From an uncultured Bacilli bacterium (lineage in GTDB: Bacteria; Bacillota_I; Bacilli_A; RF39; UBA660): a stretch of DNA of 64,000 bases. Of this stretch, positions 45,156 through 47,969 are shown piece by piece. Numbering within the stretch: the stretch's first letter is position 1; every line of letters begins with the position of its first letter. Under the pieces are notes generated by a model. The model ran no database searches. It had not been told where the DNA came from and worked only from the letters and a program-made list of their open reading frames with translations. The stretch lies in contig CANROB010000001.1 of assembly GCA_947632115.1 (NCBI GenBank), positions 26,161 to 90,160 on the forward strand, in the 5' to 3' direction. Both the position numbers and the translations under genes were made by a program.

Positions 45156-47969
45156 ATGTATTATGATTTTAAAAAAATAGAAGCAAAATGGCAAAACTAT
45201 TGGGATGAACATCATACGTTTGAAGCCGTTACGGGTAGTGAGAAAAAACCTTACTATGTTTTGGTAGAATTCCCTTATCCATCTGGATCTGGTTTACATG
45301 TAGGTCATGTTCGTAGCTATACTGCGCAAGATGCGATTGCTCGTATGAAAAGAATGCAAGGATATAACGTTCTTTATCCAATGGGATGGGATGCTTTTGG
45401 AGCGCCAGCTGAGCAATACGCTATTCAAAATCACATTCATCCAAAGGATGCCGTTCGTGAAAATATTCAAACATTCAAAGGACAAATGAAATCTCTTGGA
45501 TTCTCTTTTGATTGGAGTCGGGAGTTTTCAACGACTGATCCTGAGTATTATAAATGGACGCAGTGGCAATTCTTACAATTTTATAAACATGGAATGGCCT
45601 ATAAAGATACGGTACCAGTCAATTGGTGCCCCAACTGTAAAACGGTTCTTTCAAATGAAGATGCGGCTGGTGGCGTTTGTGAAAGATGTGGAACGAATGT
45701 TGTTCAAAAAGAAAAATCCCAATGGATGCTTCGGATGTCTGACTATTCTGAGGACTTATTAAAGGGATTAGACGATACGAATTTTGCCGAAAAGGTAAAA
45801 TTAGGTCAAATTAACTGGATTGGTAAATCGATTGGTGCCCATGTTGATTTTAAGATTGAAGGATACGATAAAACATTTACCGTCTTTACGACACGTTGCG
45901 ATACGCTTTTTGGAGCAACTTACTGTGTTTTAGCGCCAGAGCATTCTTATGTGGATGAAATTACAACAGAAGAGCATAAAGAAGAAGTTCGTGCTTATAA
46001 AGAAGCTTGTACCCTTAAAAATGAGATGGAAAGAACAGAACTCAATAAAGAAAAAACAGGAGTATTCACGGGTGCTTATGCTATTAATCCTGTAAATGAC
46101 GAGAGAATTCCTATTTATATTAGTGACTATGTTCTAGCAAGTTATGGAACAGGAGCGATTATGGCTGTTCCTGCTCATGATGATAGAGACTATGAGTTTG
46201 CTAAAAAGTTTGAAATTCCAATTATTCAAGTACTAGAGGAAGTAACAGGTAAGGCTCATGAAAATGAAACCGAAAAGAAAAGTATTGTAGCTATCATCCA
46301 TGATAAAAAAGAGGATAAATATTTAACGATTAATTGGAAAGAAAAGGGTGGACGCTTATTTATTGGCGGAACCATCCAAGAAGGAGAGACTCCTTTAGAA
46401 TGCGCTCTTCGCGAGATTAAGGAAGAAACGGGTTATACTGACTTAGAGTTTATCTATGAAGGATTTAAGATTAACCATCATTACTATGCTTATAATAAGG
46501 ATAAATATTTTAATATTGAAGCAACTCCATTCTTATTTGAGTTAAAAAGTGATACCAAAGTAGAACAGATGTTAAATGACGATGAGGTCTTTGATGTAGA
46601 ATGGGTTAGTAAAGAGGTTATCATGAAAGAAATACAAGATGAATTACATGCAAAAAGTTATGAGTATGTAACGAATCCTGGTGCGATGACAGGAGATGGA
46701 ACCCATACAAATTCTAGTTTCTTGAATGGATTAGATAAAGAAGAAGCTATCAATAAAATGATTGCTTGGTTAGAAGAGCATCATTGTGGAACGAAAAAGA
46801 TTAACTATAAGATGAGAGACTGGATTTTCTCTCGTCAAAGATTCTGGGGAGAACCTATTCCAATGATTCATTGTGAAAAATGTGGTTGGGTTCCTATGAA
46901 AGAAGAGGATTTACCACTTCTTCTTCCTGATGTTGCGGAATATGAACCTACCGATAATGGAGAAAGTCCACTTGCGAAAATTACCGATTGGGTGAATACG
47001 ACTTGTCCAAATTGTGGGGGGACAGCAACAAGAGAGACCGATACCATGCCAAACTGGGCTGGATCTAGTTGGTATTTCCTACGCTTTATGGATGCTCATA
47101 ATGATAAAGAATTTGCTTCTTTAGACGCGATGAAGTATTGGAACCGAGTAGATTGGTATAATGGTGGTATGGAACATACCGCTCGTCACTTACTCTATGC
47201 TCGTTTCTGGGTACAGTTCTTATATAATATTGGTCTTGTTCCTAATAAAGAAATGATTTGGACGCGTGTTAGTCATGGTATGATTTTAGGATCTAATGGC
47301 GAGAAGATGAGTAAGTCAAAGGGAAATGTTATTAATCCAGATGATATTGTAAAAGAAATGGGAGCAGATGCTCTTCGTACGTATGAAATGTTTATTGGTG
47401 ACTATGAAAAGGATGCATCTTGGTCCACGAATGGTTTAAAAGGATGTAAGAAATTCCTTGACCGTATTTGGAGATTACAAGAAAAGTTAAACGATAAAGA
47501 AGGTTATACGGAAGAGACCCTTATTCATCAAACGATTCGAAAAGTTACGAATGACCTTACTAGTATGAAATATAATACAGCTGTCTCTGCTTTGATGATT
47601 CTTTTAAATGAATTAGAGAAAAAAGATTCTATTACCAAACAGGATTTGCGTACTTTCATTCATCTTTTAAATCCGATTGCGCCTCATATTACAGAGGAGA
47701 TAAACGAAGTAAGTGGTTTAGGAGAGATGCTTGCTAGTTCTCCATGGCCAACTTATGATGAAGCGAAAACGGTAGAAGAGTCTTACGAATTAGTAGTTCA
47801 AGTAAACGGAAAAGTAAGAGGAAAAATGACAGTATCTACAGATGCGACGGAGGAAGAGATGAAAGAACTTGCGCAATCTATTGATAATGTAAAAAATTAC
47901 TTAGATGGTCATGAAATTGTTAAAATGGTTGTTATTCCTAAAAAATTAGTAAATATTGTCATTCGCTAA
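45156..47969 (+). CDS. leuS: Leucyl-tRNA synthetase carrying an inserted complete Nudix hydrolase domain.
   Basis: N-terminus [19 protein letters not shown], with HVGH and KMSKS motifs. An insertion of about 135 aa (nt about 46231-46690) contains a perfect Nudix box [24 protein letters not shown] (Gx5Ex7REUxEExGU). The start at 45156 has an AAGGAGG RBS. Confidence 0.85.
   Translation: [937 protein letters not shown]

Follow-up and report, generated by a model that had tools for sequence, protein, structure and literature searches.

In a 64,000-nucleotide stretch of DNA from an uncultured Bacilli bacterium (contig CANROB010000001.1; the whole stretch is called the window throughout), the leuS gene encodes a genuine leucyl-tRNA synthetase (LeuRS) with a complete Nudix domain nested in its CP1 editing domain. 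The host scores 958 bits against the bacterial LeuRS model TIGR00396, the guest lies above the threshold of Pfam family PF00293, and an AlphaFold2 model of the guest has the Nudix fold and retrieves Nudix proteins in Foldseek, which bears out the sequence-only reading of this DNA, where a complete Nudix domain had been proposed between two conserved LeuRS segments. The architecture is real, conserved and undescribed in the literature, and the nesting is far beyond chance, since 261 species representatives conserve the segment. We favour, with a probability of roughly one half, the explanation that one polypeptide would hold two enzymes, a working LeuRS and a nested Nudix hydrolase directed at diadenosine polyphosphates (ApnA) or 5'-polyphosphates, which would thus be co-expressed and co-localised.

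A Nudix domain nested in the CP1 editing domain

One unbroken open reading frame (ORF; 45114..47969, forward strand) runs across the flagged region. The leuS start is the ATG at 45156, preceded by the ribosome-binding site (RBS) GAAGGAGG, and the database protein P0170 is 100% identical to the resulting product of 937 amino acids (aa). Alignment to solved LeuRS sequences showed that the insert substitutes for a loop of 15-20 aa in the CP1 editing domain (Table 1). In the T. thermophilus enzyme the flanks pair with residues 303-364 and 380-463, which leaves 15 aa (365-379) opposite 151 aa in the window, and in N. gonorrhoeae LeuRS 20 aa stand at the insertion point against the same 151 aa, with the flanks aligning without loss; the contrast that the sequence-only reading drew with the short spacing in B. 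subtilis LeuRS thus holds for these solved enzymes. The interval given for it earlier, 46231-46690, located the insert properly but started one base out of frame, the in-frame limits being 46230-46688, and the flanking peptides and the Nudix box quoted with it are present in the window, the box being canonical and conserved. When excised (154 aa), the segment matched PF00293 from profile position 6 to 131 of 134 with 56.8 bits (E 3.2e-15; gathering cut-off 21.1 bits), and in the Pfam scan of the whole protein the match falls between position 153 and the remainder of the editing-domain profile. The box reads G405-TIQEG-E411-TPLECAL-R419-E-I-K-E-E-T-G-Y427. No intein or Hint family matched in the Pfam scan of the protein, and the insert junctions (VLEEVTG... 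and ...NPGAMTGDG), as read from the sequence, have no Cys, Ser or Thr on the N-terminal side and no His-Asn followed by Cys, Ser or Thr on the C-terminal side, in agreement with the earlier remark that intein hallmarks are absent.

Structure prediction gave the same picture. The full-length AlphaFold2 model, built on a 36-sequence alignment, has a mean predicted local distance difference test score (pLDDT) of 89.7 (~87-94 in the Nudix region) and a predicted template modelling score (pTM) of 0.76, and in Foldseek it matches the LeuRS of T. thermophilus, E. coli and N. gonorrhoeae with template modelling (TM) scores of 0.73-0.84 (0.77-0.84 against 2bte, 5omw and 4aq7), the overall LeuRS fold being present. 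The model of the insert alone, built on 22 diverse sequences, reached a pLDDT of 93.9 and a pTM of 0.88 and has the strand-helix-strand order of the Nudix fold, an alpha/beta/alpha sandwich in which the box lies on a loop-helix-loop and REIKEE is borne by the helix at residues 55-67 of the model. It had 517 PDB matches at E<=0.001; among the matches listed, 50 of 50 are Nudix proteins, and the best is 2azw, an uncharacterised Nudix protein of E. faecalis (TM 0.77/0.81). These models suggest that the Nudix domain would fold independently.

The host appears to be a complete synthetase. TIGR00396 (leuS_bact) matches with 958.3 bits (cut-off 548.4) in two stretches on either side of the insert, and the Pfam families tRNA-synt_1, PF13603 and Anticodon_1 match as well, with NUDIX between them. 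Besides the motifs in Table 1, the editing motif GTGAIMAVP is present and conserved across the clade described below, and AHDDRD sits 13 residues ahead of the insertion point. The synthetic and editing motifs of the host are intact, and the Leu T-box upstream (Table 1) gives indirect support to its predicted activity in leucylation and editing. Solved bacterial LeuRS (T. thermophilus 2BTE/1H3N, E. coli 4AQ7/4ARC) agree with the window protein in the order of their domains, in the HIGH and KMSKS motifs, in the Thr-rich motif and Asp of CP1, and in the anticodon-binding and C-terminal domains (TM 0.77-0.84, identity 33-37%), whereas a 151-aa segment with a whole Nudix domain replaces their CP1 loop of 15-20 aa. 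Among the 50 best Foldseek matches, the solved LeuRS (T. thermophilus, E. coli, N. gonorrhoeae, A. radiobacter and M. mobile; 771-876 residues or fewer) have no room for an extra domain at this point.

Table 1. Positions of leuS, its motifs, the nested Nudix segment and the upstream elements in the window.
Feature	Position	Strand	Evidence
T-box leader, Leu specifier GAA-CUC-G, controls operon	44562..44750	+	Rfam RF00230, 129.6 bits (gathering 93)
Small hydrophobic ORF, 124 aa, own RBS, between T-box and leuS	44780..45154	+	ORF list
leuS, bacterial-type leucyl-tRNA synthetase, 937 aa	45156..47969	+	TIGR00396, 958 bits; AlphaFold2 pLDDT 89.7; P0170 identical
HIGH-type motif HVGH, aa 48-51, synthetic site	45297..45308	+	HVGH/HAGH/HIGH/HLGH in 79/80 clade sequences
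Thr-rich editing motif TTRCDT, aa 245-250, CP1	45888..45905	+	TTRxDT in 80/80; PF13603, 208.8 bits
Editing motif AHDDRD, aa 340-345, with conserved Asp	46173..46190	+	AHDxRD in 80/80
Inserted segment, aa 359-511: N-terminal linker TGxxHxNE, Nudix domain, two C-terminal helices	46230..46688	+	Delimited against solved LeuRS
Pfam NUDIX (PF00293) match, aa 378-501	46287..46658	+	52.3 bits in whole protein
Nudix box, aa 404-427, canonical GX5EX7REUXEEXGU from G405	46365..46436	+	Motif and conservation
X-loop segment YYAYNKD, aa 443-449	46482..46502	+	Aromatic pair Y443/Y444 at +16/+17 after box; family-invariant Lys
KMSKS motif, aa 717-721	47304..47318	+	KMSKS in 48/80, KMGKR in 31/80 clade sequences

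Distribution and conservation of the nested domain

When one genome of each GTDB species was scanned with patterns taken from the insert, 261 GTDB species representatives proved to encode it. The best 80 of the 261 (loci L001-L080), to which our motif counts refer, all belong to uncultured gut 'Bacilli bacterium' metagenome-assembled genomes (MAGs), Clostridium sp. CAG:451/CAG:524 and Candidatus Onthousia, Onthocola, Faecimonas and Scybalousia, which the NCBI taxonomy places in Bacilli incertae sedis; the carriers come from human, rodent, rabbit, chicken and ruminant guts. The leuS ORF is complete from stop to stop (900-987 aa) in 74 of these loci and is cut by a contig end alone in 5 more, so that it is full-length or truncated only in this way in 79/80, and all 120 of the closest LeuRS homologues (>=73% identity) carry PF00293. 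One MAG (JAEEVN01, Tb.RUG.455) holds two differing leuS-Nudix loci, L015 and L049, which could be paralogues or the product of a mixed bin.

The active-site motif is conserved across the clade. In an alignment of the window with 79 of the loci (L075 was left out by the motif filter), the box residues G405, E411, E420, E423, E424 and G426 do not vary (80/80) and R419 is present in 79/80, the exception being L050 (4875-7695, 940 aa), where R419 of REUxEE is changed to His. L075 (4878-7692, 938 aa) carries Ala in place of the last Glu of the box (E424), and by their sequences these two may be inactive variants. The complete GX5EX7REUXEEXGU with all three Glu is thus kept in at least 78/80 species. 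Mean identity to the window over 79 species is 70% in the insert and 65% in the rest of LeuRS, which means that the guest is constrained no less than the host, and the conservation shows purifying selection on the insert.

Two host subtypes occur in the clade, with KMSKS (n=48) or KMGKR (n=31), and the Nudix insert is found in both. CxxCG variants dominate the two Cys-pair columns of the KMSKS subtype and point to a zinc-Cys type of enzyme, to which the window LeuRS, with its KMSKS and Cys pairs, conforms; the KMGKR subtype has non-Cys variants at these columns and HAGH in place of HVGH, and L050 and L075, both of this subtype, are without both Cys pairs of the Zn-binding motif. The HIGH-type position is gapped in one of the 80 clade sequences. 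Between the two subtypes the Nudix insert is more conserved than the host LeuRS.

The subfamily extends well beyond this clade. An exhaustive HMMER search with the insert over 1.84 billion cluster representatives returned 535 hits, and 98 of the 169 proteins pooled from two insert searches match LeuRS or LeuRS fragments. Among representatives of clusters at 50% identity, 85 LeuRS carry this Nudix subfamily, and in 64 of these it occupies the site used in the window; other LeuRS insertion sites lie near residues 222, 250, 443 and 485 of the insert-free window sequence. Ten LeuRS representatives have two or three Nudix copies. LeuRS proteins of 940-1280 aa from other lineages (P0025, P0027, P0044, P0041, P0054, P0075 and P0065) have 2-3 domains in tandem or at separate sites, and the sites used in multi-copy LeuRS are the ZN1/CP1 junction, CP1 and the region after 'PLAxIxxWVN'. 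Many second copies have the Arg of REUxEE replaced (AEIxEE / MEIxEE), and a large Paceibacterota-type subgroup is without this Arg. One of these LeuRS, of 1026 aa (P0057; L087:5001-8081) and encoded on a 504-kb contig, has the Nudix domain at the same CP1 site in an archaeal neighbourhood (rpoD-L18e-L13-S9-rpoN), and the architecture therefore crosses the boundary between bacteria and archaea.

LeuRS is not the only host, and Nudix is not the only guest. Members of this subfamily also lie inside an IleRS-like protein (with His_Phos_1), RNase PH and an M17 peptidase (which also has GNATs), and HAD_2 or Ser_hydrolase modules are nested in the LeuRS of other lineages (nested-enzyme examples: P0076, P0093, P0122, P0165, P0082 and P0150); taken together, these sequences suggest that very small genomes have a general tendency to nest domains. 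A related case that already has a curated model is NF040702, an N-acetyltransferase domain-containing IleRS, likewise a class Ia synthetase with an unrelated small-enzyme domain. In the window, by contrast, the guest is Nudix rather than GNAT and is nested within CP1.

Free-standing members of the subfamily exist as well. These proteins (P0305-P0354 and P0040; 154-197 aa) include some named 'NUDIX hydrolase [Candidatus Paceibacterota bacterium]'; the Paceibacterota homologues are 50-63% identical to the Paceibacterota-type LeuRS insert, and P0040 shares 43% identity with the window insert. They share with the LeuRS-nested domains the N-terminal linker 'FGxPHxxxExR', which means that the guest is a complete, autonomous gene product. 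The Paceibacterota proteins are independent, uncharacterised genes, whereas the window version has no free termini. One free-standing gene, for a 154-aa Nudix protein 43% identical to the window insert (L082:2-3462), stands between tsaD, a gene of tRNA t6A synthesis, and valS, only 5 nt upstream of the latter (genes read from sequence); no conserved neighbourhood tying free-standing homologues to leuS was found, and the other copies inspected share no neighbours.

At L085:2368-2877 and L086:4001-4510, the called Nudix gene, which is followed by a UMPH-1 nucleotidase gene, does not yield the recorded protein under translation table 11, a sign that the organism may use an alternative genetic code. 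At L081:6823-7389 a separate Nudix gene (188 aa) follows a distant LeuRS-Nudix gene (P0047) with overlapping stop and start; read from its sequence, it looks like a different, apparently unrelated Nudix type.

Literature searches for LeuRS or any aminoacyl-tRNA synthetase with a Nudix domain found no paper on such a fusion. Neither PMC1949818 nor PMC5389931 describes a fusion of a synthetase with Nudix; in the latter, a comprehensive review of the Nudix clan, 'synthetase', 'tRNA', 'ligase' and 'fused' do not occur as words, and an NCBIfam scan surfaced no dedicated LeuRS-Nudix model. Database names of these proteins, where given, are 'leucyl-tRNA synthetase' or 'class I tRNA ligase family protein', and the precomputed Pfam lists include PF00293. 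The sequence-only reading, which knew of no described LeuRS-Nudix fusion, is borne out by these searches; the fusion is, however, no rarity, as the architecture lies unremarked in hundreds of database genomes.

Relatives of the Nudix domain and its likely role

The closest relatives of the nested domain were sought by sequence and by structure. With the clade-specific profile the best sequence match in the PDB was to Dcp2 Nudix domains (E ~1e-6), and with the family profile 2azw, the decapping effector AvrM14, the Ap4A hydrolases 3i7u and 1f3y, CT771 and Dcp2 lead; weak Nudt16-like Pfam matches occur in relatives. The Foldseek matches of the insert model include the Aquifex Ap4A hydrolase 3i7u (TM 0.72/0.82), E. 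coli RppH with its Ap4A-bound form 7sp3 (TM ~0.68), the human Ap4A hydrolase 4ijx, YmfB and ADP-ribose pyrophosphatases, and the sequence identity of the insert to solved Nudix enzymes is 15-24%. The window domain shares with the Nudix ApnA hydrolases and RppH (3I7U, lupin 1F3Y, NUDT2 4IJX, 4S2X/7SP3) the alpha/beta/alpha fold, the canonical box, an X-loop aromatic residue ~16-18 residues past the box and a size of ~135-150 aa. Unlike them, it is nested rather than free and scores below the NCBIfam cut-offs, and the N-terminal 'G-x-P-H-x-x-E' linker and the invariant Lys in YYAxNK are specific to its own family.

Curated models did not assign the domain to a named subfamily. The RppH equivalog models were not reached (NF001936, 25 vs 118 bits; NF001938, 20 vs 116 bits; NF001937, 17 vs 139 bits). 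An identity as the MutT 8-oxo-dGTPase was rejected on its scores (TIGR00586, 21.8-25.3 vs 97.9 bits; NF008044, 21.1 vs 148 bits), as was a NudB/YtkD-like identity, for which the models were far below their cut-offs; the NCBIfam RppH, MutT, NudB and YtkD models all gave 15-31 bits against cut-offs of 98-154. In ApnA hydrolases a Tyr determinant lies in the X-loop downstream of the Nudix box (PMC5389931), and the aromatic pair of the present family, which is found family-wide 16-18 residues past the box, falls at this position; the X-loop Lys is invariant. A role on ApnA, and with it the coupling proposed in the sequence-only reading, would be consistent with this aromatic pair and with the likeness to Ap4A hydrolases and RppH, and because the Nudix box is conserved the domain is most likely catalytically active.

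Aminoacyl-tRNA synthetases, the classical producers of Ap4A-type dinucleotides, make Ap4A and Ap3A out of the adenylate that they hold bound. Of the two classical ways in which these dinucleotides are destroyed, one is through Nudix enzymes, and those of the NudH/RppH type cleave ApnA as well as Np4A-capped or triphosphorylated RNA ends. In our favoured explanation, a Nudix pyrophosphohydrolase of the free-standing type is nested at the tip of a variable CP1 surface hairpin, 13 residues past AHDxRD, keeps all metal-binding and catalytic Glu residues, and would belong to the Ap4A-hydrolase/RppH/decapping branch, from which its most likely job would be the turnover of ApnA and/or related RNA 5' ends. 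It would hydrolyse the Ap4A and Ap3A that arise as side products of aminoacyl-adenylate chemistry, and/or act on 5'-polyphosphate or Np4A-type RNA ends, and the fusion would guarantee that this clean-up activity is produced in step with, and beside, the translation machinery in a small genome. The many LeuRS that carry the subfamily, its occurrence in an IleRS-like protein and the free-standing copy just ahead of the putative valS speak for a link with class Ia synthetases. We infer the activity itself, the kind of substrate and any coupling to LeuRS, be it kinetic or spatial. In a more ambitious form, which we put forward tentatively and consider doubtful as it stands, LeuRS and other class Ia synthetases would be preferred and functionally meaningful hosts of nested house-cleaning phosphohydrolases, because the enzyme's own adenylate chemistry yields Ap4A/Np4N, and through it Np4A-capped RNA, which an in-cis Nudix domain destroys. 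One Nudix subfamily would then have entered LeuRS independently at five or more sites, with up to three copies per protein, in gut Bacilli, in Paceibacterota-like bacteria and in an archaeon.

Several observations weigh against the favoured explanation. First, the subfamily assignment is weak, given that all models are below cut-off, identities to solved enzymes are low and the uncharacterised 2azw is on top, and the X-loop Tyr rule is a correlate rather than a proof. Second, box substitutions are tolerated in at least two species (L050 and L075). Third, the occurrence of the subfamily within RNase PH and M17 peptidase shows that its hosts are not confined to synthetases, and LeuRS may simply tolerate its guest without being a partner in function, since the LeuRS of those lineages also hosts HAD and serine-hydrolase modules. 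At last, the free-standing Paceibacterota copies appear monocistronic with unrelated neighbours, so that their context gives no functional lead, and these copies, together with the other hosts, fit the scenario considered next almost as well.

That scenario is one of piggy-back house-cleaning, in which the domain would be a general sanitising pyrophosphatase, acting on oxidised or non-canonical nucleoside triphosphates or nucleoside diphosphate sugars and mechanistically unrelated to leucylation, while permissive loops in an essential, constitutively made LeuRS would help a reduced genome to retain a small gene and to keep its dosage stable. It is the strongest of the competitors, although we consider it less likely than the favoured explanation. 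Closely similar free-standing proteins (50-63% identical to the Paceibacterota-type insert) without conserved neighbours speak for it, as do the IleRS-like, RNase PH and M17 hosts, the HAD_2 and Ser_hydrolase guests in other lineages' LeuRS and the use of about five LeuRS insertion sites rather than one functional position. It does not readily account for the strong bias towards LeuRS (98 of 169 pooled proteins, 85 cluster representatives) or for the use of one loop by 64/85 of the representatives, and among characterised enzymes the domain is closest to ApnA hydrolases, RppH and decapping enzymes rather than to MutT (22-25 bits vs 98).

The likeness to Dcp2, AvrM14 and RppH also admits an RppH/Dcp2/NudC-like enzyme that works on 5' triphosphate, NAD or Np4A caps, with LeuRS serving as its RNA-binding platform and possibly with tRNA precursors, or transcripts close to the translation apparatus, as its substrates. 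The many RppH-RNA complexes at TM ~0.68 and the weak Nudt16-like matches agree with this, and LeuRS, IleRS and RNase PH are all RNA enzymes. We regard it as unlikely: the mature tRNA 5' end is a monophosphate, so the substrate is not obvious, the RppH models stay far under their cut-offs, the similarities are generic to the Ap4A/RppH branch, and a basic RNA-binding extension was not identified in the insert.

Non-enzymatic Nudix proteins exist, and the insert lies within the mobile CP1, near the editing Asp in sequence, so that the domain might instead sense a ligand, contact the tRNA or play a structural part, and in this way modulate editing by CP1 or the rotation of domains. The box substitutions in two clade members and the Paceibacterota-type subgroup without the REUxEE Arg would suit such a module, but we think it very improbable, because the full motif with its three Glu in nearly every species is hard to explain without catalysis and the free-standing homologues argue for an autonomous enzyme.

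Finally, although some short database matches (P0003, P0004, P0008 and P0010) are chimeric or frame-shifted fragments, the notion that the nesting is not real, whether a Nudix-like motif arisen by chance in ordinary CP1 sequence, a chimera due to assembly or frameshift, or an intein or other element removed after translation, has next to no probability and was rejected on the near full-length Pfam match (E 3e-15), the confidently modelled Nudix fold, the same in-frame architecture in 79/80 loci and 120/120 closest homologues, and the lack of a Hint match or intein junction residues. Pseudogenes or another genetic code, which the fragmentary matches of the insert-only search had suggested, were likewise rejected, as the full-length search and the genome scan returned intact genes; the fragments are therefore assembly artefacts of short contigs.

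Gene context and significance

The leuS gene is preceded by a T-box leader (Table 1) whose specifier codon, read off the Rfam RF00230 alignment, is CUC (Leu). Because the 124-aa ORF sits between this leader and leuS, with its stop 1 nt ahead of the leuS ATG, the T-box appears to control a putative small membrane protein along with leuS; a Pfam search of this ORF matched no family. Directly upstream of the T-box, an 808-aa ORF (42123-44549) resembles glycoside hydrolase family 31 as read from the sequence and appears unrelated to the LeuRS-Nudix fusion. Elsewhere in the window an RNase P RNA of class B (8156-8498, 297.6 bits) and an L21 ribosomal leader (21848-21913) fit the expectation for a genome of Bacillota/Bacilli.

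The fusion is one example of a wider pattern in which small hydrolases are nested in essential translation proteins of small genomes, and its spread in uncultured gut Bacilli and in ultra-small bacteria and archaea makes it a useful lineage marker. It also offers an experimental handle on two questions, namely whether the ApnA made by synthetases is a hazard that needs local removal, and how large a load can be borne by the mobile CP1 editing domain. If the Nudix domain is a generic house-cleaner uncoupled from its host, the protein would still be a clean case of recurrent domain nesting, though of lower mechanistic interest. If the self-sanitising explanation is true, these proteins would form a previously unrecognised class of bifunctional aminoacyl-tRNA synthetases, in which alarmone homeostasis would be tied directly to tRNA charging.

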